Counted from the first letter of the stretch, positions 6,599 through 52,078 are shown. The stretch is 59,012 nt of DNA from an uncultured Intrasporangiaceae bacterium (GCA_964558825.1 CAZLGB010000001.1:1-59012); one strand, 5' to 3'. Notes: generated by a model not told the origin, from the letters alone. A program made the numbers and translations.

Positions 6599-7497
<899 letters not shown>

Positions 7498-10449: not shown

Positions 10450-11362
10450 GGGCGGCGGACTCGTCCTGGCCGAGGAGGGTCCCGCGACGCCGCGCCGGCG
10501 GCGCATCCTTCGGGTGCTCGTCACCGCGCTCGTGCTCGCCCTCCTGTATGCCGGGTGGGTGGGGGTGCGCGGGCTGCTCACGGGGTCGCCGTCGCCGACC
10601 TGCACGGCCAATGTCACCGGCGGGGCGGCCGAGGTGTCTCCCGAGCAGGCCGGTAATGCCGCGGTGATCTCCGGCGTCGCCGTCAAGCGCAAGCTCCCCA
10701 CCCGCGCGGCCGTCATCGCCGTCGCCACGGCCATGCAGGAGTCCAAGCTGCGCAATCTGCGCTTCGGCGACCGCGACTCCCTCGGCCTGTTCCAACAGCG
10801 GCCGAGCCAGGGCTGGGGCACCGCCGAGCAGATCCTCGACCCGGTCTACGCCAGCGGGGCCTTCTACGACCGGCTCGTCAAGGTCAAGGACTGGCAGAAG
10901 CGTCCGCTCACGGAGGTCGCCCAGGAGGTGCAGCGCAGTGCCGCGCCCACGGCATACGCCCAACACGAGGACGAGGCGCTCGCCCTGGCCTCCGCCCTGA
11001 CCGGGGCATCAGCAGCCAGCCTCGTATGCCGGCTCGGCGACGCGTCCGCCCCGGGCTCGGCCGCCGCCACGGTCGCCGCCCTCGGGGCCGAGCTCGGCGT
11101 CAAGGGCACGGCCACCGACGGCCAGGTCATCGTGCCTGCCGATGGCCAGACCGACTGGGCGGTCGGCGCCTGGGCGGTCGGCGCCTGGGCGGTCGCCCGC
11201 GCCGAGGCGTTGGGCATCACCGATGTCAGCGTGGGCGGGCTGGGCTGGAGTCGAGCCGATCCCGAAAGCTGGGTCGGCACAGGCGATTCGGCCAGCTCAA
11301 GAGGCTCTGGATCAGCGGGTGCCGCAGCCAGCCAGGTGGTCATCCTCCACGCCGCCGGCTGA
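10436..11362 (+). CDS. Conserved membrane-anchored/secreted protein of unknown function
   Basis: N-terminal Arg-rich segment plus TM helix. Conserved core [33 protein letters not shown]. Contains an in-frame WAVGA tandem repeat. Confidence 0.65.
11156..11197 (+). repeat. In-frame 15-nt tandem repeat (TGGGCGGTCGGCGCC, about 2.8 copies) encoding [13 protein letters not shown]
   Basis: Read directly in the sequence and in the translation of ORF 10436-11362. Confidence 0.9.
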
Positions 11363-17948: not shown

Positions 17949-17999
17949 TCTCGGAGTAAGCGCTTGACCGGCGGCTTTTCCGGCGGGACTGCGGACGAA

Positions 18000-18054
18000 G
18001 TCGTGTCGGCCTGTCGTGCCGGCCTAGTCGTGCCGGCCTAGTCGTGCCGGCCGA
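18000..18054. repeat. About 4 tandem copies of a 14-bp unit (GTCGTGCCGGCCTA) spanning the stop codon of the flavin reductase gene
   Basis: GTCGTGTCGGCCT / GTCGTGCCGGCCTA / GTCGTGCCGGCCTA / GTCGTGCCGGCCGA. The last unit encodes the C-terminal GRHD. Two units contain CTA (TAG on the minus strand). Confidence 0.85.
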
Positions 18055-37121: not shown

Positions 37122-37700
37122 CGCGTCTTCTTCTCGCCACTCGACGGCGGTCGCGTCCTTCGTCCACGTGGTCGCGAACTCGGCGACCAACCCATCGAGT
37201 GTGCGCCTATCGACCGACTGCCCCAAACGTGCCAGGGTTCACGACTCGCGCGGATGCACGCGACCTGCCGACACCTCTGGACGGAGAATGGGTGGCATGC
37301 GCGACACGCGAGAGACGGGGCTGGCCCTGGTGTCCCTCGCCGATGGGCTGAAAGGGCTCACCGGCCGTGAGCACCGTGTCGGAGGGCCGGGGGTGGTCGC
37401 CCCCGGCACGGTCATTCCGCACGCCAATGCCCTTCTGCTCCAACAGGACTGGCCTCGGACACCGAGACCGGCATACGTGCGGAGCTTCCTCTTGGCCATC
37501 CCCGAACGCTCCTGAGGCCGAGGGCGAGGGTCAGGCCCCTGGGTCTGTGACGTCGGCCCACCACCGTCATACCTGGGAGTGTGCACCACGTCCAGATGTC
37601 CCCGCCCAGCACACCGAATGCCATTGGTGATTCCGGCGCGCCAAGCTCCTGCGGCAACCAAGCTCCCCACGCGACCAACGCCATTCGGTATGCCGGTGCC

Positions 37701-38273
37701 TCAGTCATCCGTGATGGCGGTTTGGAGCTGGCGGACGATGTCGCCCAGCCGGCCTCGGGTCAACAGGCCCGGCCCAAGGGGGCCTGCTGAATCGCTGCCA
37801 AGCGCAGGCAGTTGTCTCAAGGCAGCTCGCTCCGGGGCGGTCAACTCGCCCAGCTGCCAATACAGTTCATCCTTCCCAAGGTCCGGTTGGTCGGGACGCG
37901 CGAGGGTGACGGCGCGCACGGCATACGCCGCGGCGCCGAAGGCGTGGGCCCCCATGTGGGCGACAGCGGCGGCCTGCGCGACGGCCCGGCCCGCCGCCGC
38001 TCCGCCGGGATTGGTCGCGGCCCCCGCCGCCGACACCGCCACCATCCGCAGCCGGATCTCGGCAGCCGCTGTGCTGCGCCCCTCGCTGAAGGCCCGAGCA
38101 CGCGCCAGAGCCTCGAGGATCCGGTGATCCGTTGGGTCGGTCGGTTCGAACAGCGGCAGGGCTCGCTCCGCGCAGCACGCCGCCCAGCGGGCGAGCAGCC
38201 GGCGATCGGGCTCGCTGAGAGTCTGCGACGACGCCACCCTTCGGATCCTCGCACGCCGCCGCCGGTTCAGCAC
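37701..38273 (-). CDS. Hypothetical protein resembling Imm-5-like putative immunity proteins
   Basis: LLARWAACCAERALPLFE..ARARAFSEG..AAVAHMGAHAFGAAAYAVRA pattern recalled from that family (memory-based, not searched). Ala-rich helical protein. Confidence 0.5.
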   Translation of the reverse strand: MLNRRRRARIRRVASSQTLSEPDRRLLARWAACCAERALPLFEPTDPTDHRILEALARARAFSEGRSTAAAEIRLRMVAVSAAGAATNPGGAAAGRAVAQAAAVAHMGAHAFGAAAYAVRAVTLARPDQPDLGKDELYWQLGELTAPERAALRQLPALGSDSAGPLGPGLLTRGRLGDIVRQLQTAITDD

Positions 38274-38560
38274 TCCTCGGTTGTTTGGGTGAGGGTGACG
38301 GGCGGCAGCCCGTTGCGGAAGTCGTCGTCGACCGTTGGCAGCGCTCGCGGATAGGGCCGGCCGAAGACGAATCCGAAATAGGACGCTTCGTCGAACGCCA
38401 GATGCTTGACCAGACCGAGCACGTTGAGGCCCGTGGGAGTCATCGGCCGGCGGACGGCATACTCATCGAGGCCCTCGAGCGTGGGGACCACCGCGGCCCG
38501 CGCCCAGAGCAGACTCTGGTGCAATTGCTGCTTTGCCGCCTCGACCCGCTGGTCGCTCAT
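38267..38560 (-). pseudogene. N-terminal fragment of a DinB/DUF664-family protein (about half length)
   Basis: The 97-aa ORF has the DUF664-like start (..LEGLDEYAVRRPMTPTGLNVLGLVKHLAFDEASYFGFVFG) but stops after roughly half the usual length. It overlaps the next gene by 7 nt. Confidence 0.45.
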
Positions 38561-40836: not shown

Positions 40837-40857
40837 CTAGACGTTGAAGCGGAACTC
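40837..40857 (-). other. Displaced original 3' end of ychF (codons EFRFNV plus TAG), separated from the gene by the insertion
   Basis: The reverse complement reads GAGTTCCGCTTCAACGTCTAG, which encodes the canonical YchF C-terminus ..VEFRFNV. The ychF body ends 10 kb away at 50984 with a non-canonical tail. Confidence 0.85.
40850..40857. repeat. attL core (CGGAACTC)
   Basis: Identical 8-mer at 51006-51013. Flanks on the two sides recombine in silico into an intact ychF terminus. Confidence 0.8.
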
Positions 40858-40890
40858 CACCGGATAACGTGAGTATGCAACACTACTGAC

Positions 40891-41151
40891 ATGAGCACAA
40901 GAGTGTGCGCGGACGAGCAGTGCGAGGCGACGTTCACCCCTACTCGGTCTGACGCCGAGTTCTGTTCCTCTGCCTGCCGCCAGCGGACCTATCGCCAGCG
41001 CGCCAAGGTGCGAGCGGGCATGCCGCACGCCGCCCGTTGGGCGCTCAGTGCTGGGCTCGGGCCGGCGACCGAAGCGCTCGCGCGGCACATGCTCGCCGAG
41101 ACCGTTACGGATAGCGCTCGGCTCATCCGTAACGCGGAGGGTGACCGATGA
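40891..41151 (+). CDS. Small Cys-rich (zinc-ribbon-like) protein, first gene of the element
   Basis: C-x4-C..C-x3-C (CADEQC..FCSSACRQRTYRQR). Its stop overlaps the integrase ATG (ATGA). Could be an accessory or directionality factor (inference). Confidence 0.6.
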   Translation: MSTRVCADEQCEATFTPTRSDAEFCSSACRQRTYRQRAKVRAGMPHAARWALSAGLGPATEALARHMLAETVTDSARLIRNAEGDR

Positions 41152-42557
41152 CCTCCCGCCGACGTGGTGCGGTTGCACCAGCTGAGGCCGCACCGACCAG
41201 GCGCGCGGCGATCTACCTGCGCATCTCGCTCGACGCCACGGGCGAAGGGCTCGCGGTCGAGCGCCAGCGCAAGGAGTGCCAGGCGATCGTCGAGGCGCGC
41301 GGCTGGCAGCTCGTGGGCGAGTTCGTCGACAACTCGATCAGCGCCAGCGACGCGAAGAAGAACCGACCTGGGTATGCCGCCCTGCTGGCCGCGTATGCCG
41401 CGGGCGAGTTCGACGCGCTGGTCTGCTACGACCTCGACCGGCTCACCCGCCAGCCACGCCAGCTCGAGGACTGGATCGACGCAGCGGAAGGCGGGCGGCT
41501 CGCGCTCACGACCGCCAACGGCGAGGCAGACCTCACGACCGACGGGGGTCGGCTCTTCGCCCGGATCAAACTCGCGGTCGCCCGGGCCGAGGTCGAGCGC
41601 AAGGGCGCCCGTCAGCGTGCGGCCGCCCGGCAGCGCGCCGACCTCGGGCGCCCGCCGCTGGGGGTCCGCCTGACTGGCTACACGCCGAAGGGCGACCTCG
41701 TGCCCGACGAGGCCGACCTCATCCGGCGCATCTTCCGGGAGTTCGTCGGCGGCGCCGGGCTGCGGACCATCGCCCGCGGGCTCAATGACGAGGGCGTGCC
41801 GACGCGACGGGGGAAGCCGTGGCACCCGTCGAGCCTGCTCACCATCCTGCGCAACCCTCGGTATGCCGGCCGGGCCATCTACCAGGGCGAGCAGACGGGC
41901 GGACAAGGCGCGTGGGTGGCCCTCGTCAGCGCTGAGGACTTCGAGACGGCACAGGCGATGCTCGACGACCCCACGCGGGCCACCAACCGCACCGGATCGA
42001 CCGAGCGCAAGCACCTCGGGTCGGGGCTCTTCCTGTGCGACGTGTGCCGCGAGCCGGTGAGCTCGTGGTCGGGCGGGCGCTACCGCTGCCGTAACGGCGC
42101 CCACGTCAACCGCGCCCGCGGGCCGGTGGACAGCTACGTCACGAGCGTCATCGCGGCGCGGCTGGCGCTTCCTGACATGGACGGACTCCTGTCGGTTTCC
42201 TCCACTGCGCACGCTCCCCTGCTCGACGACATCACCCGTCTACGCGCCCGGCTGGCCCGCAACGATGAGGACTATGACGCCGGGCTCATCGACGGCAAGC
42301 GCTACAAGGCCGCCCGCGATCGGGGTGAGGCTGAGCTACGGCAGGCGCAAGAGGCGCTGGCCCACGCGCGCTCAGGCGACGCCCTGGTGACCCTCGCGGG
42401 CGCCCCTGACCCAGCACAGGCGTTCCTCGACGCTCCGCTGGTGACTCAGCGCGCTGTCGTCGACTTCCTGGCCGTCGTCGCGCTGCGGAAGGGCACGCGC
42501 TACTCGCGGGAGTTCGATCCGGAGACGGTCGTCATCACGCCGAAGGAGCGAATTTGA
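41148..42557 (+). CDS. Large serine recombinase (integrase)
   Basis: N-terminal resolvase domain AAIYLRISLD (catalytic Ser) ..ERQ..DNSISAS..YDLDRLTR. Followed by a recombinase domain and zinc-ribbon (LFLCDVCREPV..YRCRNG), then a coiled-coil tail. 469 aa. Confidence 0.9.
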   Translation: MTSRRRGAVAPAEAAPTRRAAIYLRISLDATGEGLAVERQRKECQAIVEARGWQLVGEFVDNSISASDAKKNRPGYAALLAAYAAGEFDALVCYDLDRLTRQPRQLEDWIDAAEGGRLALTTANGEADLTTDGGRLFARIKLAVARAEVERKGARQRAAARQRADLGRPPLGVRLTGYTPKGDLVPDEADLIRRIFREFVGGAGLRTIARGLNDEGVPTRRGKPWHPSSLLTILRNPRYAGRAIYQGEQTGGQGAWVALVSAEDFETAQAMLDDPTRATNRTGSTERKHLGSGLFLCDVCREPVSSWSGGRYRCRNGAHVNRARGPVDSYVTSVIAARLALPDMDGLLSVSSTAHAPLLDDITRLRARLARNDEDYDAGLIDGKRYKAARDRGEAELRQAQEALAHARSGDALVTLAGAPDPAQAFLDAPLVTQRAVVDFLAVVALRKGTRYSREFDPETVVITPKERI

Positions 42558-42913
42558 GCCCTATCTCCCGAGCCGTGCGGTTCGTATGCACGGACAAGGG
42601 GCAGCACTCTGAACACGCGCTTGCCCTCGTCGTCCCGTATGCGGCGCGGGCGGATCGCACCGATATGACCCCTGATCCCGCTGCGTTATCTCGGGGGTGG
42701 GCCGTTGCTGAGAGCCTGACCCGCCGCGATGCCGGGGGTGATCCGCATACCTGGCACCGGGAATCAGCCGAGATCGTCAGTGGAACCTTGCACGTGCCGC
42801 GCTGTCCGTCGTGCAAGCGTGAACTTCGGATCACGAGTGCACAGATTCATGCGCTGGCGACTCAACTCACCCCCGACCGCGCCGGGCGTGTCCGCGTGGA
42901 CATCTCCTGCTAG
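42554..42913 (+). CDS. Hypothetical protein (element)
   Basis: 119-aa ORF. TTG start overlaps the integrase stop and is preceded by GAAGGAG. Contains CPSC. Confidence 0.55.
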   Translation: MSPISRAVRFVCTDKGQHSEHALALVVPYAARADRTDMTPDPAALSRGWAVAESLTRRDAGGDPHTWHRESAEIVSGTLHVPRCPSCKRELRITSAQIHALATQLTPDRAGRVRVDISC

Positions 42914-43020
42914 TCGCGTAGCATTGACATCACACGGGCCGAGTCCTGTTTCGACTCGGGCAAGCCGTCTCGCCGAAAGGCACGGGCGGCCCCCTACGCA
43001 TCCCCCAAGGGGAGCAGCCC

Positions 43021-43251
43021 GTGTCGCAGATCCTCGCAAGGCGCGCGCGTATCGCCGCGCTCACCCGTCATGGCCGCCCCGCCGACGATCCCGAGCTGGT
43101 CACAGAGCGCCAGGCGCTCAAGGCCGAACGTCTCGCCGAGCAAATCGAACGCGACGTCAGCACGTGGCCGCCGCTCACTGACGCCGACCGGGTCGAGCTG
43201 GCCCGCCTGCTGAGCCCGAGCCCTGCCCGTGAGCGGGGGTCCGCAGCGTGA
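43021..43251 (+). CDS. Hypothetical small helical protein (element)
   Basis: 76-aa ORF. GTG start preceded by AAGGGGAG. Normal composition. Confidence 0.55.
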   Translation: MSQILARRARIAALTRHGRPADDPELVTERQALKAERLAEQIERDVSTWPPLTDADRVELARLLSPSPARERGSAA

Positions 43252-43547
43252 GCGCTCCCCCGACACGAAGAAGCCGCCCCGGCATGGCTTCCGAGGCGGC
43301 TCCAAAGACGTTTCGCGGCGTCACCCAGATTGTACGTGAGACGCCCGTCTCGCGGACCCTCATGGTCGAGGTGTCGCGCTACTGCCTCACCTGCCGCCGC
43401 CGGCTGACCGAGCCCGGCGCCGCCGAGCAGCACGCCCGCCGCGGGCATCTCGTCGAGGTGGTCACCACGACGACTGCCGTCATGGGCACCGTCGCTGCCG
43501 TCGACCGGTTGATCCTCGCGCAGACCGGGGTGATGGCTCATGCCTGA
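43248..43547 (+). CDS. Hypothetical protein (element)
   Basis: 99-aa ORF with a GTGA overlap with the previous gene. CLTC..H..H zinc-finger-like motif. Confidence 0.5.
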   Translation: MSAPPTRRSRPGMASEAAPKTFRGVTQIVRETPVSRTLMVEVSRYCLTCRRRLTEPGAAEQHARRGHLVEVVTTTTAVMGTVAAVDRLILAQTGVMAHA

Positions 43548-43911
43548 CGACCTTGTCCCTGAGGCATACAAGCTCCACCCGATCGACTCGGGCGACCCGC
43601 AGCGGATGATCGACTACTTCGCCGGCCGTCACGACGAGCGCGAGTTCGGCGACGGTGCACGCGCCCAGGCCGAGCTCGACGAGCTCGCAGCCCTACAGCG
43701 CGCCGCCGTCCACAACGTGCACCGGGCGGCCGGTATGCCGGTCCGTGAGCCGCTCGTCCTCGAGCTGACGCCCGAGCAGATGGCGCGCGTTCACGCCGAC
43801 CGCGACCGCGTCCGGGGTGAGGCGTTCCGGGCCGGTCTTCGCGTCGGGAAGTCCGGAAGCTCGTATGTCGGGTCCCCCGACACACCGTCCGCGATGGGGG
43901 TGGCCTCGTGA
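43540..43911 (+). CDS. Hypothetical protein (element)
   Basis: 123-aa ORF. Overlaps its neighbours by 8 and 4 nt. Confidence 0.55.
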   Translation: MPDDLVPEAYKLHPIDSGDPQRMIDYFAGRHDEREFGDGARAQAELDELAALQRAAVHNVHRAAGMPVREPLVLELTPEQMARVHADRDRVRGEAFRAGLRVGKSGSSYVGSPDTPSAMGVAS

Positions 43912-45281
43912 GCCTCTACGGCACGGATTACCCGGACCCGGTCGAGCCCGACCCGACCATCCCCGTGGTCTCGCTCGCCGAGGCGCACGAGGTCTTCACG
44001 CGGTGGCTCGGGGACGACTACGACCTCGACGCCCTCGATGCCGTGTTGGCGACGGCCGCCGTCGAGCGGATGACCGGCGACCCGCTGTGGCTGCTGCTCA
44101 TCTCCGGCAGCGGCAACGCCAAGACCGAGACCGTGCAGGCTCTCGACGGCATAGGCGCGACCGTCACCTCGACGATCTCCTCCACGGGCGCGCTGCTGTC
44201 AGCGACCGCGAAGAAGGAGCGCGCCGAGGACGCCACCGGGGGGCTGCTACGCAAACTCGGCCCGCGCGGGGTCCTCGTGGTCAAGGACGTCACGAGCATC
44301 CTGTCGACCAGCCGCGATGCGCGCGCGGAGATCCTGGCAGCCCTCCGCGAGGTGTACGACGGCCGTTGGTCGCGCAACGTCGGCACCGACGGAGGCCGCA
44401 CGCTCGACTGGTCCGGGCGGCTCGCCCTCGTCGGGGCCGTCACGACCGCATGGGACCGGGCGCACGACGTCATCGCCTCGATGGGCGACCGGTTCGTGTT
44501 GCTGCGGATGGACTCCACCCAGGGCCGTCAGGTCGCCGGCCGGCAGGCCATCGGGAACACCGGCCACGAGATGACCATGCGCCGCCAGCTCGCCGACGCC
44601 GTCGCCGGAGTCCTCGCGGGCATGACGCCACGGGTGGACCCGGTCACCGACGCGGAGACCGACATCCTGCTCGCCGCCGCCGACCTCGTCACCCTGGCTC
44701 GCACCGGGGTCGAGTACGACTACCGCGGCGATGTCGTCGACGCCCACGCACCGGAAATGCCGACACGCTTCGCAAAGCAGCTCACCCAGGTGGTCCTTGG
44801 GGGGTGCGCGCTCGGTATGCCGCGCACGGCGGCGCTGCGTCTGGCGGTGCGGTGCGCCCGGGACTCGATGCCGCCGCTGCGGCTGGCCATCGTCGATGAC
44901 ATCGCGGCCCACCCCGACTCCTCGACTGCCGATGTGCGCAAGCGCCTCGGCAAGCCACGGGCCACCGTTGACCGGCAGTTGCAGGCGCTGCACATGCTCG
45001 GCGTACTGGTCTGCCAGGAAGAAGAGGTCGTCTGGGCCGGACGCGAGGCGACCCGCTGGCACTACTCCCTGGCCGACGGAATCGATCCGCACGCGCTCGA
45101 CCCGGACCAAATCAGTGCCAGATTTGGCGTTACGTACCCCTATCCACTGAAAGAAGAGGGGTCAGGCGTACACACCCCTACCGCCAAATCTGGCACTGAG
45201 TCCGACGGGTGCTGCCTCGACTGCGGTCTACCCCTGCCGGCCGGCTCGACATCGGCCTACCACCAGGGGTGCGCCGCATGA
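43908..45281 (+). CDS. P-loop NTPase, putative replication initiator/helicase-like protein with C-terminal wHTH
   Basis: Walker A-like LLLISGSGNAKTE and Walker B-like GVLVVKDV. C-terminal winged-helix-like segment (VRKRLGKPRATVDRQLQALHMLGVL). Largest gene of the early module. Confidence 0.55.
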   Translation: MSLYGTDYPDPVEPDPTIPVVSLAEAHEVFTRWLGDDYDLDALDAVLATAAVERMTGDPLWLLLISGSGNAKTETVQALDGIGATVTSTISSTGALLSATAKKERAEDATGGLLRKLGPRGVLVVKDVTSILSTSRDARAEILAALREVYDGRWSRNVGTDGGRTLDWSGRLALVGAVTTAWDRAHDVIASMGDRFVLLRMDSTQGRQVAGRQAIGNTGHEMTMRRQLADAVAGVLAGMTPRVDPVTDAETDILLAAADLVTLARTGVEYDYRGDVVDAHAPEMPTRFAKQLTQVVLGGCALGMPRTAALRLAVRCARDSMPPLRLAIVDDIAAHPDSSTADVRKRLGKPRATVDRQLQALHMLGVLVCQEEEVVWAGREATRWHYSLADGIDPHALDPDQISARFGVTYPYPLKEEGSGVHTPTAKSGTESDGCCLDCGLPLPAGSTSAYHQGCAA

Positions 45282-45676
45282 CCACTCCGCCCGTCCTCGT
45301 CTTGGGCTCGTCGGTGCTGCTGTCGGGTCAGGCGGTTGCCGATGCGCTCGGGCTGGCGGTGTTGGGCAGCCGCGTGGCAGCGCGTGACGGCATCGGCACA
45401 CCGCCTCGGGTGCGCGTCTTGGTCGGGGCCTTGAAAGACGCCCTAAAGGCACAGGGGCGTCCGGGCGGACATGCGGACGTCCGCGACGAGGCCGAGTCGG
45501 CAGAGTCGGATAGCCGGGTCACAACCTCCGACGCGGCAAGGGTGTTGGGACTGTCCACTCGTCAGGTCCGTCGCCTGGCGTTCCCCCTCGCCGGGGTGCG
45601 CGGGCCTGGCGGGTGGACGTACTCAGCCGAAGCGCTCGCGGCATACGCCGCACGACGACAGGAGCAAGCATCGTGA
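45278..45676 (+). CDS. HTH DNA-binding protein (MerR/excisionase-like HTH)
   Basis: TTSDAARVLGLSTRQVRRLA helix-turn-helix. ATGA overlap with the previous gene. Confidence 0.55.
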   Translation: MTTPPVLVLGSSVLLSGQAVADALGLAVLGSRVAARDGIGTPPRVRVLVGALKDALKAQGRPGGHADVRDEAESAESDSRVTTSDAARVLGLSTRQVRRLAFPLAGVRGPGGWTYSAEALAAYAARRQEQAS

Positions 45677-46122
45677 GCACCATCACCCGGGGCTCGTGGA
45701 TCAACGGCGACCATTTCCCCATCACGGTCGACGTCCGCGGCGCCAACCCGCTCGAGGACGATGTCCGCCAGACCAGCCCCGCCGCCTACGCGGCCAGCGT
45801 CAAGGTCGCCGGCCCATGTCCCAAACTGTTCGCCGGCGGGCTGCTCGACCTGCCGGTGTTCACCGCCTCTGGCATCGACCCGGCCGTCCTCAAGACGGTG
45901 CCCGCGACGCAGCGACACGCGCTGGCCGCCGAGCCCGACCGTGCCAAGGTCTACGCACTCATCGAGGAGTACGGCCCCTTCGACGACGTCTCCCTTCCCC
46001 ACCCCGGATGGAATGACGCGGTCGGGCGGGTCGGGCACTGGGCCTCGGGCCGACTCGACCCGCCTGGCTCCGAGGCGTCGGTCGTGGCCGCAATGGATGA
46101 GTGGGCCAGGACCAACCGATGA
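45673..46122 (+). CDS. Hypothetical protein (element)
   Basis: 149 aa. GTGA overlap upstream and ATGA overlap downstream. Confidence 0.55.
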   Translation: MSTITRGSWINGDHFPITVDVRGANPLEDDVRQTSPAAYAASVKVAGPCPKLFAGGLLDLPVFTASGIDPAVLKTVPATQRHALAAEPDRAKVYALIEEYGPFDDVSLPHPGWNDAVGRVGHWASGRLDPPGSEASVVAAMDEWARTNR

Positions 46123-46913
46123 ACCTGACCCAGTTCTCAGCGCGAGCGGTCGCGTCCTTCCTGCGCGAGCTGTCCACCGACGGGGCGCCCGTTCCGGTGG
46201 CCGCCATGAACGCGGTTGCCCTGCTCGACGACATCCTCTCGGGCGACCCGGCGCAGACCCTGCGCCCCAGCACCAATCCGACCGCGCTCATGGCCTCCGA
46301 CCCCGCCACATTCGCCGATGCCATCCGGGCCGAGGCGCTGTGGATGGTCGTCGGTTCGCGCGCCGGGGACGCCGCTGTCGTGGTGACTGACGCAACCATG
46401 AAGGCGGCCGTCGACCTCACCCGCGAGCGTGCCGACGACCTGCTCGACCACTACCGCCCCCGCTTCGACAGGGCCATCGCGACCATCGCCGCGGCGGTCG
46501 AGGCGGGCGTCCGATATGACATGACCTCCGACGACCTTGTCATCGCCGGCCCGTCAGTCGTCGCTGCGTGGCAACCCGTCCCCGGCGCAGCCGCCGTCCT
46601 CGACCGGATCGCATCCAAGCGCAGCCGCATGTGCGAGCTGCTAGATATCGCCCCTGTCGCTCAATACCAACACTCGGCGATGCCCGGCGCAGCGCGAACA
46701 ATGTGGCCCATCGACACGGCATACGCCGTGGTCCGGCTACCCGAGAAGACCCACCGATCCGGTCCCGCCTACTGGCTGCGCCTGGCATCCCTCGGGCCGG
46801 TCACGCTGCACACCGTCGCGCAAACCATCGCTGCCGAGCGAGCCACCCGACCGCCCATCCGCGTAGCCGTCGTCGAGAACGACCACGGCCGCGCCGTGAT
46901 GAACGTCCATTGA
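46119..46913 (+). CDS. Hypothetical protein (element)
   Basis: 264 aa with normal composition. Translationally coupled on both sides. Confidence 0.55.
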   Translation: MNLTQFSARAVASFLRELSTDGAPVPVAAMNAVALLDDILSGDPAQTLRPSTNPTALMASDPATFADAIRAEALWMVVGSRAGDAAVVVTDATMKAAVDLTRERADDLLDHYRPRFDRAIATIAAAVEAGVRYDMTSDDLVIAGPSVVAAWQPVPGAAAVLDRIASKRSRMCELLDIAPVAQYQHSAMPGAARTMWPIDTAYAVVRLPEKTHRSGPAYWLRLASLGPVTLHTVAQTIAAERATRPPIRVAVVENDHGRAVMNVH

Positions 46914-47272
46914 TGCCGTTCGCGTCAAAGGCCATCCGTCAGCGGGCACGCCGTCGCGTGGCCGCTCGGGTCCGCGCCGGGGAGCCGTGCGCGTTCTGCG
47001 GCCTACCCATCGACCTGACCATCCCGTATCCAGATCCCGCTTCATTCACGGTTGACCACGCCATCCCTTCCAGCCTCGGAGGCACCGACAACTACGAGCA
47101 GCTACGCGCGGCGCACAACGCCTGCAACCGAGCGAGGAGCAATCTGCCATCGGGCACCGTGGGCACCAACTCCGGCGCACTGACGGGTGGGGGACTGCCC
47201 CCCTCGCCTCCATCGCGGCCCTCTCACGGCATAGGGATCAATCTGGAGCCCAGAAAGGCCCGCGCCTCGTGA
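46913..47272 (+). CDS. HNH endonuclease
   Basis: CAFCG..TVDHAIPSSLGG..N..LRAAHNACNRAR (Cys pair plus H-N-H core). Placed immediately upstream of the terminase genes, as in cos-type phages. Confidence 0.8.
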   Translation: MPFASKAIRQRARRRVAARVRAGEPCAFCGLPIDLTIPYPDPASFTVDHAIPSSLGGTDNYEQLRAAHNACNRARSNLPSGTVGTNSGALTGGGLPPSPPSRPSHGIGINLEPRKARAS

Positions 47273-47472
47273 CCACCGACCGCGAGCGCCTGGAGGCCCT
47301 CCGCGAGCGCCTGGAGGGGGTCATCAGTGACCCCGCGACCAGCCCGCGAGACCTGGCGACGGTAGCCCGTGAGTACCGAATCCTCGTGCACAAGCTGTCC
47401 GAGTTGCGACCAGCCGAGCGGTCTGCGTTGGACGAGATTGCCGCACGCCGAGCGCAACGGAGGTCATCGTGA
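47269..47472 (+). CDS. Small helical protein in the TerS position (putative small terminase subunit)
   Basis: 67 aa with GTGA overlaps on both sides. The call rests on position between HNH and TerL only. Confidence 0.45.
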   Translation: MTTDRERLEALRERLEGVISDPATSPRDLATVAREYRILVHKLSELRPAERSALDEIAARRAQRRSS

Positions 47473-48875
47473 CGGTCGCGGTTTCGTGCCCACCCACGTT
47501 CTGCCGGGTGCCCGATGGGGATGAGACCACAGGACGGGAGACTGTCGAGCTGGCCCGCGCCTACGGGGTGCCTTTAGACGAGTGGCAGGAGTCCATCGTC
47601 CGGGGGGTCCTGCGTGAGTCCGGCAACGGATGGGCCGCCTCTCAAGCCGGGCTGGTCGTGTCTCGGCAGAACGGCAAGGGCCAAATCCTGCTCGTGCTGG
47701 AGCTGGCCGGGCTGCTCCTGTTCGACGAGCACATCCTGCACACCGCGCACGCCGTCAAGACCAGTTCCGACGCGTTCCGCCGTTTGTGGCGCCTGATCCA
47801 GTCACATGACGACCTGTCGCGCCGTGTGCGCCGGCACTCCGAGCAGATCGGCATGGAGTATGTCGAGTGGACCTCAGGCGCCCGCATCGCGTTCACCACC
47901 CGCTCAGCGTCCGCCGGCCGAGGGTTGGCCGTCGATCGGCTAGTCGTCGACGAGGCCGAAGACTTCCCCGCGCCGGAGGTCGGAGCACTCGCACCCACCG
48001 TGTTCAGTCGACCGCGCGCCCAAAGTCTGTACTTCGGCACAGCTCCTGGCCCGATGCACGACTCGGAAGCGTTCGCCACGATGCGCCGCACGGCACACGA
48101 AGGGCTCAATCCGCGCCTGGCCTGGTGGGAGTGGGTAGCCGAGTACGGGCACGACGTTGACGACCGGCAGGTGTGGCTTCAGGTCAACCCTGCGGTCGCC
48201 GTTGGCCGCGTTGACGTACAGGCCATCGTCAATGACCGGGCCGTGCTTCCCGTCGACCAGTTCCGCGCCGAACGGTTGTCCATGTGGCTACCCACGGGTG
48301 GCGCCCGAGTGTTCGACGCGGACCCCTGGCAAAGCCTCACCGACATGGGGTCGACCCCTGTCACGGATCTCGCGCTCGGGTTGGATTGCCCACCGTCCCG
48401 CGAGTACGCCACGGTCTGCCTGGCAGGCCGCCGCGCGGACGGGCTGCTCCACGTCGAGTGGTACCACAGCGCCGAAGGGGTGCGCTGGGTCCCCGAATGG
48501 GTCGCCGCGCATCTCACACCCGCCGTCAGGGCCGTGGTCGTCGACACCCGAAACCCGCTCGCTGAGCTCGACTGGAAAGCCGCAGGCGTCGCACCCACCC
48601 TCGCCGGAACCCGTGACGTCGCGGCGGCTGCTGGCGCGTATTTCGACGCCATCAGCGAAGGCCGCGCACGCCACCGCGGACAAGTCGAACTCACCCGCGC
48701 CACTCTCGGCGCCCGACAGCGACCCATGGTCGCCGGAGAAGGGTTCGGCTGGGATCGCAAGGCGCCGGGCTCGTCTGCGCTCTACGCCGCATCCCTCGCC
48801 GTCTGGGGCGTCGACACACCCACCGCCGAAAAGCCACCATGCAGGATCCGCACGGGCCGAGCCGTCTTCCGTTAG
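47469..48875 (+). CDS. Phage terminase large subunit
   Basis: LDEWQESIVRGVL, Walker A SRQNGKG and Walker B LVVDEAE, followed by a nuclease-type C-terminal half. 468 aa. Confidence 0.85.
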   Translation: MTVAVSCPPTFCRVPDGDETTGRETVELARAYGVPLDEWQESIVRGVLRESGNGWAASQAGLVVSRQNGKGQILLVLELAGLLLFDEHILHTAHAVKTSSDAFRRLWRLIQSHDDLSRRVRRHSEQIGMEYVEWTSGARIAFTTRSASAGRGLAVDRLVVDEAEDFPAPEVGALAPTVFSRPRAQSLYFGTAPGPMHDSEAFATMRRTAHEGLNPRLAWWEWVAEYGHDVDDRQVWLQVNPAVAVGRVDVQAIVNDRAVLPVDQFRAERLSMWLPTGGARVFDADPWQSLTDMGSTPVTDLALGLDCPPSREYATVCLAGRRADGLLHVEWYHSAEGVRWVPEWVAAHLTPAVRAVVVDTRNPLAELDWKAAGVAPTLAGTRDVAAAAGAYFDAISEGRARHRGQVELTRATLGARQRPMVAGEGFGWDRKAPGSSALYAASLAVWGVDTPTAEKPPCRIRTGRAVFR

Positions 48876-48893
48876 CGGCAGTAAACTTCACGA

Positions 48894-49163
48894 GTGGCTC
48901 TGAAACCCAGAAACGTCGAGTGGATCGGGTTCACGAAAGAGCAAGCCCGCATGCTCGACTTCCTCGATCACCTAGGCAACAACGGCTGGGACCGCAACGG
49001 ACAGACCGACGCCGTGATGCCCGGGTACATCCTTGAACTCGAAAGCCAGATCGGCCTATCGCGAGTCAAAGACGCCATGGCGTCAGTCGGATACGACCGA
49101 AGCGACCTGCACATGCTCGACCGGTGGTATTCGAAAGCCACAACAGGCAAGTTCGGCCGATGA
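48894..49163 (+). CDS. Hypothetical protein, atypical codon usage (cargo)
   Basis: 89 aa. Visibly more A/T-ending codons (AAA, AGA, GAA, CTA, TAT) than neighbouring genes. GTG start. Confidence 0.55.
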   Translation: MALKPRNVEWIGFTKEQARMLDFLDHLGNNGWDRNGQTDAVMPGYILELESQIGLSRVKDAMASVGYDRSDLHMLDRWYSKATTGKFGR

Positions 49164-49170
49164 GGGGCCG

Positions 49171-49824
49171 GTGGCGCCATTTGAGGCGACGGGCGCGCGG
49201 TGGGAACCTTGCGGGGTGACCGAAGCCCTCGCCGTCATCGCCATCTTGGTTTCATTGGGGTCGCTCTACTTCGCATGGAAGGTTGCTAGATCCACCGAGG
49301 ATCAAGCCGACATACAGCGTCAGATCCGGATCGATGCTGCGCAGCCGTTCGTTTTCGCTGACATCCGTCCGCACCACCAGCATGGCAGCCTCCTCATGTT
49401 CGTAGTCGGGAACACTGGTCCGACAGTGGCGACCAACGTCCGCATCTCCCTTCACCGCCCACTCCCCGCAGGCGACACGGACCGAGCGCTGAGAGCCACA
49501 CGCGCCATCGAGAACGGAATCTCGGCGCTAACGCCGGGCCAGACGGTCGCATGGACGCTCGGCGTGCCCTGGCAGGTTCTCGAACAGGTTCCCGAAGGGG
49601 ACGCTTCGTATCGCTTTGCCGTCACCTGCGATGGCCCCTTCGGCCCCGTGCCGCCCCTGGAGTACACCGTCGACCTAGACGACATTCGGCACTCACACCC
49701 GTATGCCGTGGGCACCCTTCACGGCGTTGCAGAACAGATCAGATCACTCAGAGAGGACCTCGCGCGGCAGCTCAGAGAGCTCCGCCCACCACTTGCCCAC
49801 ATGGATGATGAGGAGGACGAGTGA
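49171..49824 (+). CDS. Membrane-anchored hypothetical protein with acidic C-terminus (cargo)
   Basis: TM helix ALAVIAILVSLGSLYFAW, then a probable beta-rich domain (LLMFVVGNTGPTVATNVRISL), and it ends DDEEDE. The start is ambiguous (GTG 49171 or 49216). Confidence 0.6.
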   Translation: MAPFEATGARWEPCGVTEALAVIAILVSLGSLYFAWKVARSTEDQADIQRQIRIDAAQPFVFADIRPHHQHGSLLMFVVGNTGPTVATNVRISLHRPLPAGDTDRALRATRAIENGISALTPGQTVAWTLGVPWQVLEQVPEGDASYRFAVTCDGPFGPVPPLEYTVDLDDIRHSHPYAVGTLHGVAEQIRSLREDLARQLRELRPPLAHMDDEEDE

Positions 49825-49865
49825 CGTACAACAGCCACGGACTCCGGGACCGCGCTCGTGGGTCA

Positions 49866-50054
49866 TTAGCTCTCAAGGTCGACCCTCTGCCCGCAACTCG
49901 AGCACACGAGCTTGCGCAGCGCGCCCTTTGCGAGCCCCGCCGCGACTAGCGTCGTCTTCCCACATGTGGGGCAGTTCAGGAACTGCTCGGGTCTGTTGCT
50001 CATATCCTCCAGGTCGCCAACTAGATCATCGAGACCATCGAACTCCATGCTCAT
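49866..50054 (-). CDS. Small zinc-ribbon protein (cargo)
   Basis: 62 aa. Acidic N-terminus, then CPTC..x21..CSSC. Start at the internal ATG 50054. The upstream part of the track ORF is implausible. Confidence 0.55.
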   Translation of the reverse strand: MSMEFDGLDDLVGDLEDMSNRPEQFLNCPTCGKTTLVAAGLAKGALRKLVCSSCGQRVDLES

Positions 50055-50076
50055 GCCCCTGACCGTACCCAACGAC

Positions 50077-50107
50077 ACCGCCCCCCGCTCATCGAGCGGG
50101 GGGCGGT
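50077..50107 (-). terminator. Strong hairpin: 14-bp perfect GC-rich stem, 3-nt loop
   Basis: ACCGCCCCCCGCTC-ATC-GAGCGGGGGGCGGT, about 85 nt downstream of the 72-aa gene on the minus strand. Confidence 0.65.
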
Positions 50108-50193
50108 CTCTTGACGTCGAGCTACTTGACCCGCTCGAACACCGGGGCCAAGTACGCACGGGGTCAGGCACGGTAGGAAGTCCAGACGAGCGC

Positions 50194-50412
50194 TCACTGC
50201 TCCATCTTCGCCACGAGTTCCGAGGTCTTGATGCCGAGCCTGTCCGCGATGAAGAACAAGGTCTCGACCCTCGGAGTGGGGTCGTCGGGCGCCGGAATGT
50301 CCGGCTGGAGCCGATGGGCGAGCCGAGTGAGGGCGCGGGCGATGTCGTCCACGGCATATGCCAGCCATCCGCGCGGGTCCGTCAGGACCACGGGAAGACG
50401 GTCGGCGTTCAT
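50194..50412 (-). CDS. Hypothetical small protein (element regulatory module)
   Basis: 72 aa. ATGA overlap with the XRE gene. C-terminus (ETLFFIADRLGIKTSELVAKME) resembles the last helices of an XRE domain. Confidence 0.55.
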   Translation of the reverse strand: MNADRLPVVLTDPRGWLAYAVDDIARALTRLAHRLQPDIPAPDDPTPRVETLFFIADRLGIKTSELVAKMEQ

Positions 50413-50618
50413 CGGGCCACCACCTTCCCCATCGTGCGGTCAGCTGCCATCCGGCCCAGCGCATCGAGAGCCTGGTCACGCCGCGCCGGGCGAGCCTCAA
50501 CCTGACCCCGTTCGTAACGGCCCAACCAGGACCGGCTCAGCCCCGACTCCCGAGCGAGCTGCTCCAGCGTGAAGCCCAACGCCGTGCGCAGCAACCGCAA
50601 GGCCGCACCGTAGCTCAT
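50409..50618 (-). CDS. XRE-family HTH transcriptional regulator (Cro/CI-like)
   Basis: LRLLRTALGFTLEQLARESGLSRSWLGRYERGQ. Confidence 0.75.
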   Translation of the reverse strand: MSYGAALRLLRTALGFTLEQLARESGLSRSWLGRYERGQVEARPARRDQALDALGRMAADRTMGKVVAR

Positions 50619-50951
50619 CGCGCACCCGCCAGCACCACGGCGAGATCCTCGGCCGCGCCGCGCAAGGCGTCACCCATCGCGGTCAACCGTGCCACCGCCT
50701 CACCGAGCGGCAGTACCGCCACCCGCGCGCCGCCCACGGACACCCCGACACCCGAGGTGCCATCCGCGTGAGCGAACACGTCCACCAGCACATCCGGGGA
50801 CACGGTCGCCCCCCGCACCTGCCCCTTGCGGCTCCGAGGCTGCCAAGTCGACGTCCTCCCGCGTCGGCATCGCCAGCGTGTCCAGCAGCCGGTGCGCCGG
50901 GTTCGTGCACCAGCTCGGGCAGTCGGTGGGGCTGAGAGTGGAAAGGGTCAT
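50615..50951 (-). pseudogene. Phage-type small protein apparently split by a frameshift at a C6/G6 run
   Basis: The N-terminal frame (ATG 50951: MTLSTLSPTDCPSWCTNPAH..) and C-terminal frame (50818-50615: ..VLVDVFAHADG..LPLGEAVARLTAMGDAL) change at the homopolymer at 50809-50814. Alternatively 50615-50818 is an independent GTG-started gene. Confidence 0.4.
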
Positions 50952-50983
50952 GTCCGGCCTCCATTGGGCCGGTCGAGCCACCC

Positions 50984-52078
50984 TTACCTAGTTGTTGCAG
51001 AGTGTCGGAACTCGACCACGTCGCCGTCGGCCATCACATAGTCCTTGCCCTCGATGCGCACCTTGCCCGCAGCGCGCGCGGCCACCATCGTCCCGGCGGC
51101 ATCCAGATCGGCGAAGGACACGACCTCGGCCTTGATGAAGCCCCGCTGGAAGTCGGTGTGGATGACACCCGCAGCTTGCGGGGCCGTCCAGCCCTGGCGG
51201 ATCGTCCAGGCTCGCGACTCCTTGGGCCCCGCCGTCAAATAGGTCTGCAGCCCGAGGGTGTGGAAGCCGACATGAGCGAGCTGGTCGAGCCCCGGCTCGG
51301 TCACGCCCACCGACTCAAGCAGCTCGCGCGCCTCCGCCTCGTCGAGCTCGGCCAGATCGGCCTCAAGCTTGGCCGACAGGAAGACGCTGTCGGCAGGCGC
51401 CACCGACGCGCGCAGTCGCGCCTGCAACTCGGTGTCGGTCAGCTGGTCTTCGTCGAGATTGAAGACATAGATGAAGGGCTTGGTCGTCAGCAGCTGCAGC
51501 GCGCGCGCCTCGGCGAGGTCGACCCCGTAGGCCGCGCCGGCGGCATACAGCGTCTTGCCATCCTCCAAACACCGTTGCGCCGCAACGGCATTGTCGTATG
51601 CCGCCCGCTTGTCCTTGACGACGCGCGCCTCCTTCTCCAGGCGCGGGACGGCCTTTTCGAGGGTCTGGAGGTCGGCGAGGCAGAGCTCGGTCTCGATGGT
51701 CTCGATGTCCCCGGCCGGGCTGACCTTGCCCTCGACGTGGGTGACGTCGTCGTCGACGAAGACCCGCACGACCTGGCAGATGGCGTCGGCCTCGCGGATG
51801 TTGGCGAGGAACTTGTTGCCCAGACCCTCGCCCTCGGAGGCGCCGCGGACGATGCCGGCGATGTCGACGAAGGACACGGTCGCGGGCAGAATCCGCTCCG
51901 AGCCATAGATCTCGGCCAGTCTCGCCAGCCGTGGATCGGGCAGCGGCACGACGCCGACATTGGGCTCGATCGTCGCGAAGGGATAGTTCGCGGCCAGGAC
52001 GTTGTTCTTGGTCAGCGCATTGAAGAGCGTCGACTTGCCGACGTTGGGAAGGCCGACGATTCCGATGGTGAGCGCCAC
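50984..52078 (-). CDS. ychF: Redox-regulated ATPase YchF, with C-terminus altered by the insertion
   Basis: [18 protein letters not shown] and the full YchF pattern. It ends ..[14 protein letters not shown] instead of ..VEFRFNV. Confidence 0.93.
51006..51013. repeat. attR core (CGGAACTC)
   Basis: See attL. Lies within ychF codons V-E-F-R. Confidence 0.8.

Follow-up and report, generated by a model that had tools for sequence, protein, structure and literature searches.

The analysed window is a complete contig of 59,012 bp with a G+C content of ~70% from an uncultured bacterium of the Intrasporangiaceae (GCA_964558825.1, CAZLGB010000001.1). It contains a 10.16-kb integrative element that probably represents a phage satellite equipped with a complete terminase and devoid of recognisable virion genes. 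The element is an exact insertion of 10,156 bp in the 3' end of the host gene ychF. It is flanked by two copies of the 8-bp core CGGAACTC, which were found by reading the sequence; they are too short for the thresholds of the repeat search and were not listed by it. An 8-bp common core is usual for large serine integrases, for example that of Bxb1. On the attL side, the minus strand still encodes the usual C-terminus of YchF (...VEFRFNV*, stop codon at 40837-39). The current ychF reads across the attR core and takes its final six codons and its stop from element DNA; its product comprises 364 residues, whereas the 90%-identity cluster of YchF consists mostly of 361-residue proteins from relatives with an empty site. 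In a relative with a 95.6% identical YchF, a 361-aa ychF is unbroken and the upstream synteny (RmuC, methyltransferase, 4HBT_3) is kept. The attB of locus L161 matches the left half of attL and the right half of attR base for base. The insertion is considered exact because of the shared cores, the split ychF end and the empty attB in a close relative. The reconstructed attB 30-mer, composed of the left half of attL and the right half of attR, is intact in more than 120 metagenome contigs; among 120 attB-bearing contigs no empty site of the same species was present. Three independent Logan assemblies contain the identical element, inserted at the identical site.

The cores enclose positions 40858-51005, the span that a preliminary description of this DNA had assigned to the element. 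Within it, 13 rightward genes extend from 40891 to 48875 (Table 1), as deduced concordantly from frame analysis of third-position G+C (GC3), lists of open reading frames (ORFs) and the gene calls of the sequence collection. Nearly all of them overlap by 1, 4 or 8 nt, and one gap of 108 bp lies between 42913 and 43021. The preliminary description had given the extent and the overlaps of this chain correctly and had counted 12 genes instead of 13. The identities that it proposed for the integrase, a helix-turn-helix (HTH) protein, the HNH endonuclease and the small (TerS) and large (TerL) terminase subunits were matched by hidden Markov model (HMM) searches in Pfam and PHROGs. The short cargo and the leftward XRE module that it placed after TerL correspond to ~1 kb of cargo and a confirmed XRE regulator. 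It had also noted the absence of virion genes; indeed, no ORF of the element matched a portal, protease, capsid, tail or lysis protein in Pfam, PHROGs and NCBIfam. For the remaining ORFs and the cargo genes, searches of NCBIfam and PADLOC yielded no assignment, the largest ORF without assignment having 264 codons.

Table 1. Features of the element and its insertion site (positions in the window)
Feature	Position	Strand	Evidence
Displaced native ychF 3' end with attL core CGGAACTC (40850-40857)	40837..40857	-	sequence; aligned with empty attB of L161 and with attR
86-aa Cys-rich, Zn-ribbon-like protein, first gene of chain	40891..41151	+	weak: phrog_8643 3.4e-6, zf-CGNR 0.08
Large serine integrase, 469 aa	41148..42557	+	PF00239 Resolvase 1.7e-26, PF07508 Recombinase 5.4e-21, phrog_95 1e-90
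119-aa Cys-containing protein	42554..42913	+	gene calls; no family match
76-aa protein, directly after chain gap	43021..43251	+	gene calls
87-aa protein with CxxC motif	43284..43547	+	gene calls
123-aa protein	43540..43911	+	gene calls; no family match
457-aa AAA+ (MCM/Cch/PriRep-like) helicase, C-terminal winged helix	43908..45281	+	motifs, homologues, AlphaFold2 model and Foldseek
132-aa HTH_17 (excisionase/MerR-type) protein	45278..45676	+	PF12728 2.7e-4; phrog_66, phrog_57 weak
149-aa protein	45673..46122	+	gene calls; no match in Pfam, PHROGs, NCBIfam, PADLOC
264-aa, mostly alpha-helical protein, just upstream of HNH	46119..46913	+	remote homologues, hhalign
HNH endonuclease, 119 aa	46913..47272	+	PF01844 4e-8, phrog_338 1.2e-21
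Conserved 21-nt motif GGCATAGGGATCAATCTGGAG	47228..47248	+	alignment of HNH-TerS spacer; pattern counts
Candidate TerS, 67 aa	47269..47472	+	phrog_1459 1.4e-5; position
TerL, 468 aa, full length	47469..48875	+	phrog_9 2.7e-47
70-aa cargo protein (89 aa from start 48894)	48951..49163	+	no matches; lower-G+C stretch
217-aa cargo protein, hydrophobic-looking N-terminal stretch in translation	49171..49824	+	phrog_11802 (unknown function) 6e-5
~62-70-aa double-CxxC zinc-ribbon protein	49866..50078	-	several weak Zn-ribbon Pfam matches, phrog_2945
72-aa protein, downstream partner of XRE gene	50194..50412	-	gene calls; no matches
XRE-family HTH regulator, 69 aa	50409..50618	-	PF13560 1.3e-11, PF01381 2.4e-8; PADLOC 'control protein' 9e-8
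67-aa ORF (50615-50818) and out-of-frame upstream ORF from ATG 50951, CPxWC motif	50615..50981	-	three-frame translation
Host ychF, 364 aa	50984..52078	-	Pfam MMR_HSR1 / YchF-GTPase_C in gene calls
attR core CGGAACTC	51006..51013	.	sequence; aligned with attL and attB

TerL aligns over 97% of its length with the ~470-aa TerLs of 1,879 actinophage records (tblastn). The TerLs of phages and prophages closest to it are ~30-34% identical. The nearest phage TerL among 50,697 phage genomes, that of Rhodococcus phage Sleepyhead, is 34% identical (tblastn), and identity to plasmid-borne copies does not exceed 32%. The Walker A (RQxGKG) and Walker B (DEAED) motifs as well as D306, D359 and D429 are invariant in 25 close homologues; the latter three residues, which are located in the C-terminal half, may be read as the nuclease site. 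Pairwise ratios of nonsynonymous to synonymous substitution rates (dN/dS) of TerL are 0.10-0.17 in unsaturated pairs and at most 0.25 overall, which indicates purifying selection. A truncated or inactive TerL or integrase, which had been named beforehand as an observation that would speak against a satellite, was not encountered: both proteins are full length, and TerL is under purifying selection. None of the terminase models of Pfam and NCBIfam matches this TerL, and PHROG 9 alone detects its clade. Most copies in the databases are annotated as hypothetical because these models miss the clade. Prophage and satellite finders probably overlook the elements as well, and the same blindness of the models probably accounts for their absence from catalogues.

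Within the HNH protein, the domain itself takes up about the first 85 residues, and the tail runs through DNA that is intergenic in relatives. The position of TerS is conserved in all relatives, with dN/dS values of 0.08-0.5. In HNH/cos-type terminase modules, of the type attributed to Kala et al. 2014, HNH is reportedly situated directly 5' of TerS-TerL, with the cohesive-end site (cos) between HNH and TerS. The gene order in the element agrees with this arrangement, and the corresponding spacer, in which cleavage would presumably take place, contains a conserved 21-nt motif. Alignment of the spacers yielded GGC(A/G)TAGGnAnnnATCTGGAG in essentially every family member. The motif has one match in the window compared to 0 in 100 shuffles. 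Furthermore, 18 fetched element-bearing loci (14 distinct elements) have a single copy of it per element, just upstream of TerS, and 0 of 146 other loci have one. It is a candidate for a cos or terminase recognition site, or for a control site of the late operon. Eight matches to the motif pattern in IMG/VR were rejected as unrelated chance matches of lower G+C content without element genes.

The 457-aa protein is most plausibly a self-loading replicative helicase of the AAA+ type, and it is presumed to be the replication initiator of the element. Its Walker-A-like motif (GSGNAKT) and its VVKD motif are invariant. More than 2,800 homologues are 66-79% identical; some stand alone and others have a Prim-Pol, Toprim or DUF3854 primase domain at the N-terminus, and one carries the name 'PhiRv2-like prophage protein'. 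An AlphaFold2 model based on 35 sequences reached a pLDDT of 81. Foldseek related this model to MCM subunits, the helicase region (C-terminal domain) of NrS-1, PriRep1 of a Staphylococcus aureus pathogenicity island (SaPI; 7pds), Cch of SCCmec (5dgk) and the PrimPol of African swine fever virus, with a probability of 1.0 and modest TM-scores of 0.25-0.41. Sequence searches of the PDB yielded nothing useful, either for the helicase or for the TerL profile. The helicase is the functional counterpart of the 'pri-rep' gene found in phage-inducible chromosomal islands (PICIs), in this case without a primase domain.

The 264-aa protein encoded just upstream of HNH has two close homologues and 75 remote ones of similar size. 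In 11 loci (9 after removal of duplicate element copies) a protein of 258-291 aa is encoded directly upstream of HNH; in the locus of Kytococcus aerolatus, our gene call gave 376 aa. The profile of the 264-aa protein aligns with that of this cluster (C4), which stems from mycobacterial and Kytococcus elements, over 224 columns (hhalign probability 90%, E 1.6e-6). For the ~260-aa family, there was no PHROG match and no tblastn match in the 50,697 phage genomes. The family evolves faster than TerL: its dN/dS values are 0.33-0.73, compared to 0.10-0.17 for TerL in the same pairs, and between the elements of M. intracellulare and M. gilvum the ~260-aa protein is 40% and TerL 85% identical. An AlphaFold2 model of the 264-aa protein, based on an alignment of two sequences, is unusable (pLDDT 39); it is mostly helical over the first 175 residues. 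A match to the 'major head protein' family phrog_283 (E 0.0048) was not supported, given this helical low-confidence model and the lack of a phage homologue. The ~260-aa protein is the best candidate for a helper-specific hijack or scaffold-like factor.

Related elements are widespread in Actinomycetota. A scan of genome contigs with TerL alone detected none of them, and the relatives were found with a TerL alignment as query. A search of 5.8 billion proteins yielded 310 TerL homologues at E <= 1e-20; the best 120 of these are 62-77% identical and mostly 464-484 aa long. At 52-78% identity, TerL is present in ~20 independent, non-redundant loci from at least 8 genera. The members include elements from Dermacoccus, Kytococcus sedentarius, K. 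aerolatus, Nakamurella, a metagenome-assembled genome (MAG) of Janibacter and several other MAGs, as well as from the Mycobacteriaceae M. gilvum, M. intracellulare, M. arabiense, M. chlorophenolicum, M. elephantis, Mycolicibacter senuensis and [M.] nativiensis. The M. intracellulare element is indexed in 88 blocks of the collection. Wherever both ends are readable, the elements comprise ~9.5-15 kb. Their integrases are of the tyrosine or the serine type, their insertion sites differ, and their replication genes belong to Prim-Pol, D5_N, AAA_25 or DUF3631. For example, the Dermacoccus element encodes a tyrosine integrase, a D5_N/DUF5906 primase-helicase, WhiB, a 292-aa protein, HNH, a 72-aa protein and TerL; K. 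sedentarius and K. aerolatus combine a tyrosine integrase with a Prim-Pol-helicase, and Nakamurella a serine integrase with AAA_25. According to tblastn with all element proteins, only HNH (36-70% identity), TerS (48-68%) and TerL (52-78%) are common to nearly all relatives. The conserved core of the family thus consists of HNH-TerS-TerL and the 21-nt motif, joined by the ~260-aa protein, which was demonstrated for most members.

None of the close TerL relatives that could be placed in context has a portal or capsid gene beside TerL. A PHROGs scan covered the ORFs of 150 aa or more that lie up to 7 kb downstream of TerL (68 ORFs, 17 close loci). Among the best 25 of the 58 families detected there is no portal, capsid or protease; they comprise host-type genes, integrases, transposases and a single tape measure protein. 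Clustering of ORFs gave a consistent result. The TerLs of only ~30% identity from Gordonia, Williamsia and Nocardia (L021-L023) are followed by a shared block of a portal-sized, a ~420-aa and a capsid-sized gene, whose functions were deduced from size and position and not from HMMs; this block is absent from all close loci. The preliminary description had proposed that recurrence at ~10 kb would support a satellite. The ~20 loci, which have varied integrases and sites and no portal or capsid genes beside TerL and which comprise ~9.5-15 kb where both ends are readable, correspond to this expectation. Together with the intact TerL and integrase, they also lend support to its preference for a satellite over a prophage remnant.

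Several members carry additional genes. In the Nakamurella element (L032:11471-14974) and in a contig from IMG/VR (L158:1855-4710), TerL is directly followed by a tape measure gene of 950-1170 codons with M15/SLT or NlpC/P60 lysin domains. In two mycobacteriaceal loci (L015:7255-9027 and L016:7215-8990), a 590-aa Sipho_Gp37-like minor tail protein is encoded before HNH (phrog_110, 4e-180). Locus L004 encodes a 1196-aa protein without family match ~1.8 kb downstream of TerL (L004:13181-16771). The lone tail genes in some members fit elements that travel in phage particles. In Mycolicibacterium arabiense (L033:1392-4280), the gene caller fused a ComM-like Mg-chelatase ORF to the serine integrase of the element, which indicates that this element is inserted in the 3' part of comM, beside dprA.

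The contig from IMG/VR (IMGVR_UViG_3300044807_000058; L158/L160), the only one of the family in this database, has a length of 15.3 kb. The order of its genes is HNH'-TerS-TerL-tape measure-cargo-regulators-serine integrase-DUF3631 replication gene, and a PIN/VapC-like gene is also present. Compared with the integrated layout, this order is circularly permuted, and the regulator block abuts the integrase as it would across attP. It is a hint that the contig might represent an excised circle or a concatemer.

At 10.16 kb and without complete virion genes, the element corresponds to the general definition of a satellite as a small mobile element. Indirect hints at mobilisation in particles of a helper are the conserved cis motif at the cos position, the tail genes of relatives and the permuted gene order of the IMG/VR contig. 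Capsid-forming PICIs (cfPICIs) are the only described satellites with HNH-TerS-TerL and package their own DNA (PMC10085698; bioRxiv 10.1101/2022.09.08.507074). In addition to HNH, TerS and TerL they possess capsid, portal, protease, head-tail adaptor and connector, and obtain only tails from the helper; the cfPICI model of SatelliteFinder demands at least 9 of 11 core components, and Type A has been reported in Proteobacteria only (same sources). The window element shares with them HNH, TerS, TerL, integrase, regulator and, in the form of a replicase analogue, the left-arm primase-replicase. In contrast to cfPICIs, it has at most 6 core components, and capsid, portal, protease, adaptor and connector were not found.

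With PICIs and SaPIs, the element has in common its size, an integrase, a repressor module, a self-loading helicase with a PriRep1-like fold, redirection based on TerS, and the lack of virion genes. Judged by functional analogues instead of the HMMs of SatelliteFinder, the PICI core is represented by the serine integrase, the XRE regulator, the MCM-like helicase and TerS; tail, holin, portal and connector were not found. However, PICIs rely on the TerL of the helper, whereas the element has its own full-length TerL plus HNH. A further difference is that its integrase is a serine recombinase and that regulator module and integrase are found at opposite ends of the integrated element. For markers of P4-like satellites (Psu, Delta, Sid, Epsilon, AlpA, P4-type primase), there was no match in PHROGs or Pfam, the dedicated profiles of SatelliteFinder not having been run.

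Satellites have been predicted in actinobacteria before. SatelliteFinder classifies phiRv1, phiRv2 and other mycobacterial elements as PICIs (PMC10085698), and candidate Mycobacterium PICIs defined by integrase plus capsid gene have been proposed by the Hatfull group (PMC10654092). The window element resembles phiRv1 and phiRv2 in its size of ~10 kb, in the integrase (serine in phiRv1, tyrosine in phiRv2), in a small HTH_17-type protein and in the ~460-aa helicase family. Besides genes for a capsid and a prohead protease, elements of the phiRv type have a small terminase-like gene, and they are not known to carry TerL or HNH. In the window element, conversely, HNH-TerS-TerL is present, and Phage_capsid and Peptidase_S78 were not found in Pfam and PHROGs searches.

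A different small element from Intrasporangium sp. (L163:6141-14600; Logan DRR536540) occupies the same attB in ychF, where CAC follows the identical core CGGAACTC. Identity to the window element is 53% for the integrase and 74% for the helicase; in place of HNH-TerS-TerL, the Intrasporangium element carries Phage_capsid and a protein with an NmeDI_C domain. The shared attB suggests that two types of satellite compete for one attachment site. In an element of M. marinum (L164), the same helicase family is encoded beside a prohead protease (Peptidase_S78). Both contexts suggest that the integrase/replication arm is shared and that the hijack module is exchangeable. By sequence comparison, the backbone of the window element is not isolated, as the helicase and, in one case, the attachment site are common with capsid-bearing elements of the phiRv type.

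Isolated actinobacterial satellites are MiniFlayer and MulchRoom of Streptomyces (PMC10690885) and the EPIPs of Mycolicibacterium aichiense (PMC12822802). With ~11-17 kb, they are comparable to the element in size and host phylum. The EPIPs further resemble it in the serine integrase and TerS; they contain a tape measure gene, as do the relatives L032 and L158. As far as can be compared from their descriptions, the EPIPs differ in having head-tail adaptor, stopper, scaffold and capsid-related genes and in lacking TerL and HNH, and MiniFlayer differs in having encapsidation genes and in lacking replication genes. In the literature that was covered, albeit incompletely, we found no description of a satellite with a full terminase and without head genes. 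The supposition that such satellites would be new to Actinomycetota requires correction in one respect: satellites have already been predicted and isolated there, and only this layout appears to be undescribed.

Taken together, we consider it probable (roughly 0.6) that the element is a PICI-type phage satellite in its integrated form, which combines a backbone of the phiRv1/phiRv2 type with a complete cos-type terminase as hijack module instead of capsid genes. It is, in these terms, a PICI-like satellite with its own terminase and without a capsid, and not a categorically new entity. At rest, the element would reside in the 3' end of ychF, replacing the last codons and leaving the gene open, while the leftward XRE regulator would silence the rightward operon. 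Infection by, or induction of, a helper siphovirus would lead to derepression, and the serine integrase, perhaps together with the HTH_17 protein as directionality factor, would excise the element at the 8-bp core. The MCM-like AAA+ helicase would then replicate it into concatemers. A site specific to the element, most likely situated in the conserved HNH-TerS spacer at ~47228-47248, would be recognised and cleaved by its own TerS, TerL and HNH. Subsequently, TerL would dock on the portal of the helper and pump satellite DNA into its procapsids, and tails and lysis functions of the helper would complete the particle. The ~260-aa helical protein might serve a helper-specific step such as capsid-size control, adaptation to the portal or derepression.

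A number of points weigh against this interpretation. What is said above on induction and excision, on cos, on packaging in capsids of a helper and on the roles of small ORFs is inferred from sequence, and the helper siphovirus is postulated. A cos genome of 10 kb would underfill a normal siphovirus head, and a gene for capsid size is not recognisable; small capsids or the packaging of multimers are candidate solutions. The TerL of the element must fit a foreign portal, and to our knowledge no described satellite does so without a portal of its own. TerS is assigned by a profile match that is weak when taken alone, plus its position. The preliminary description had suggested looking for cos near 47.2-47.5 kb; the conserved 21-nt motif in the HNH-TerS spacer agrees with this, whereas a G-run/C-run 'hairpin' upstream of it is no more stable than shuffled sequence (z ~0). 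The argument for cos is conservation, and the last bases of the motif double as the ribosome-binding site of TerS. The last element gene before attR is possibly split by a frameshift, or may be a pseudogene. Among the relatives, TerL is frameshifted in L018-L020, which demonstrates that copies decay, and the downstream scan covers the best 25 of 58 families.

Alternatively, the element might have kept the terminase trio for another use, such as phage defence by hijacking or blocking procapsids or by cutting phage DNA, and move rarely or by other means. We regard this as unlikely. In its favour, interference functions are common in satellites and islands, TerL, TerS and HNH are under selection while packaging remains inferred, and the family is almost absent from IMG/VR. 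On the other hand, the conserved cis motif is located exactly at the cos position of HNH phages, the element possesses an integrase as well as a module for autonomous replication, some members have gained a gene for a tape measure or minor tail protein, and elements with 70% identical TerLs occur in different orders. The motif, the integrase and replication modules, the tail genes and the spread over orders argue for horizontal spread in particles. No defence model of PADLOC matches the cargo, and interference and transfer would in any case be compatible.

The element could also be the remnant of a temperate phage of 35-50 kb that retained its early and first packaging genes and lost the region from portal to lysis. 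The late operon of HNH/cos siphoviruses normally begins with HNH-TerS-TerL, ~1 kb of lower-G+C DNA follows TerL where the portal would be expected, and signs of decay exist in the family (the frameshifted TerLs of L018-L020 and insertion sequences in L002 and L004). This origin is nevertheless improbable, since the same truncation would be needed ~20 times, with different integrases, attachment sites, replication genes and hosts. Moreover, the dN/dS values of TerL (0.10-0.25) speak for continuing selection, no full-length phage or prophage with a TerL of more than 34% identity was found, and neither were fragments of structural genes. The single internal deletion offered as an alternative in the preliminary description is thus largely refuted by the recurrence of the element.

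It is highly improbable that we are dealing with a self-sufficient minimal virus or an element similar to a gene transfer agent, whose capsid, portal and tail hide among the unannotated ORFs. Nine ORFs lack an assignable function, and the 264-aa protein has its weak match to phrog_283; however, no unassigned ORF exceeds 264 codons, so that none is portal-sized, the helical first 175 residues of the low-confidence model are unlike an HK97-fold capsid, no phage homologue was found, and the remaining ~3.5 kb of small ORFs are too little for head and tail. Equally far-fetched is an integrative conjugative or mobilisable element akin to the actinomycete integrative and conjugative elements (AICEs) with incidental phage-like genes: the size of ~10 kb, the integrase plus replication gene and the actinobacterial host would match, and replication proteins of the Prim-Pol type, as in the relatives, also occur in AICEs, but no ORF matched an FtsK/SpoIIIE-type Tra, Spd, Nudix or Kor protein in Pfam, PHROGs and NCBIfam, and the terminase trio is the only module conserved family-wide.

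Satellites as known so far either borrow the TerL of the helper (PICI, P4 and the PICI-like elements, PLE) or combine a terminase with a capsid and portal of their own (cfPICI). A terminase-only satellite would, if true, represent a third strategy. A broader proposal, to which we give even odds, is that of a new satellite class across Actinomycetota, including the clinically relevant Mycobacterium intracellulare, that is characterised by a private terminase and cos and by the lack of head genes. Its members would steal procapsids by means of TerL on the helper portal, helper specificity or the size of the capsid would be adjusted by the rapidly evolving ~260-aa protein, and optional tape measure or minor tail genes would re-tool tails. 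This raises the question of how a TerL that is conserved at 55-78% identity across several orders would fit the portals of many different helpers. Such elements are frequent both among environmental Actinomycetota and within the M. avium-intracellulare group and could affect the outcome of phage therapy, transduction and phage resistance. Furthermore, the phiRv-type backbone with a swapped hijack module (capsid versus terminase, once at the same attachment site) offers a natural system for studying the modular evolution of satellites.

Among the remaining genes of the element, the 132-aa HTH_17 protein may be a recombination directionality factor or a regulator, and the 69-aa XRE protein is a candidate for the master repressor. 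A promoter-like sigma-70 match (TGGACA-16-TAGCAT) at 42897-42924, in the chain gap upstream of 43021, is the sole one in the element; with one site compared to 0.3 expected by chance, it is weak. A strong G+C hairpin (CCGCCCCCCGCTC...GAGCGGGGGGCGG) at 50086-50114, between the zinc-ribbon gene and the 72-aa/XRE operon, may be a terminator of the leftward operon, although it lacks a T-run. At the right end, the ORF starting from ATG 50951 (MTLSTLSPTDCPSWCTNPAH...) becomes rich in Arg and Gly, and the 67-aa ORF carries on in another frame; all assemblies agree in this. No match in Pfam or PHROGs was obtained for the joined protein of 50615-50981, and BLAST did not relate it to the DUF6907 gene that L032 has at the equivalent position.

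In the host DNA to the left of the element (~37579-38560), Imm5-like and MST-family ORFs are located beside Gig2-like and HbpS-like ones, according to the gene calls of the identical Logan contigs. In the empty-site relative, ychF is followed by an AAA_14/DUF4143 gene and not by these genes. Scans of the window with Rfam and for tRNAs gave no matches. The host DNA further contains tandem repeats at 6644-6741 (18-nt unit x5.6, GCCGGGGTCGGCGGCGCC), 11155-11195 (15-nt unit x2.7) and 17999-18052 (14-nt unit x3.9).

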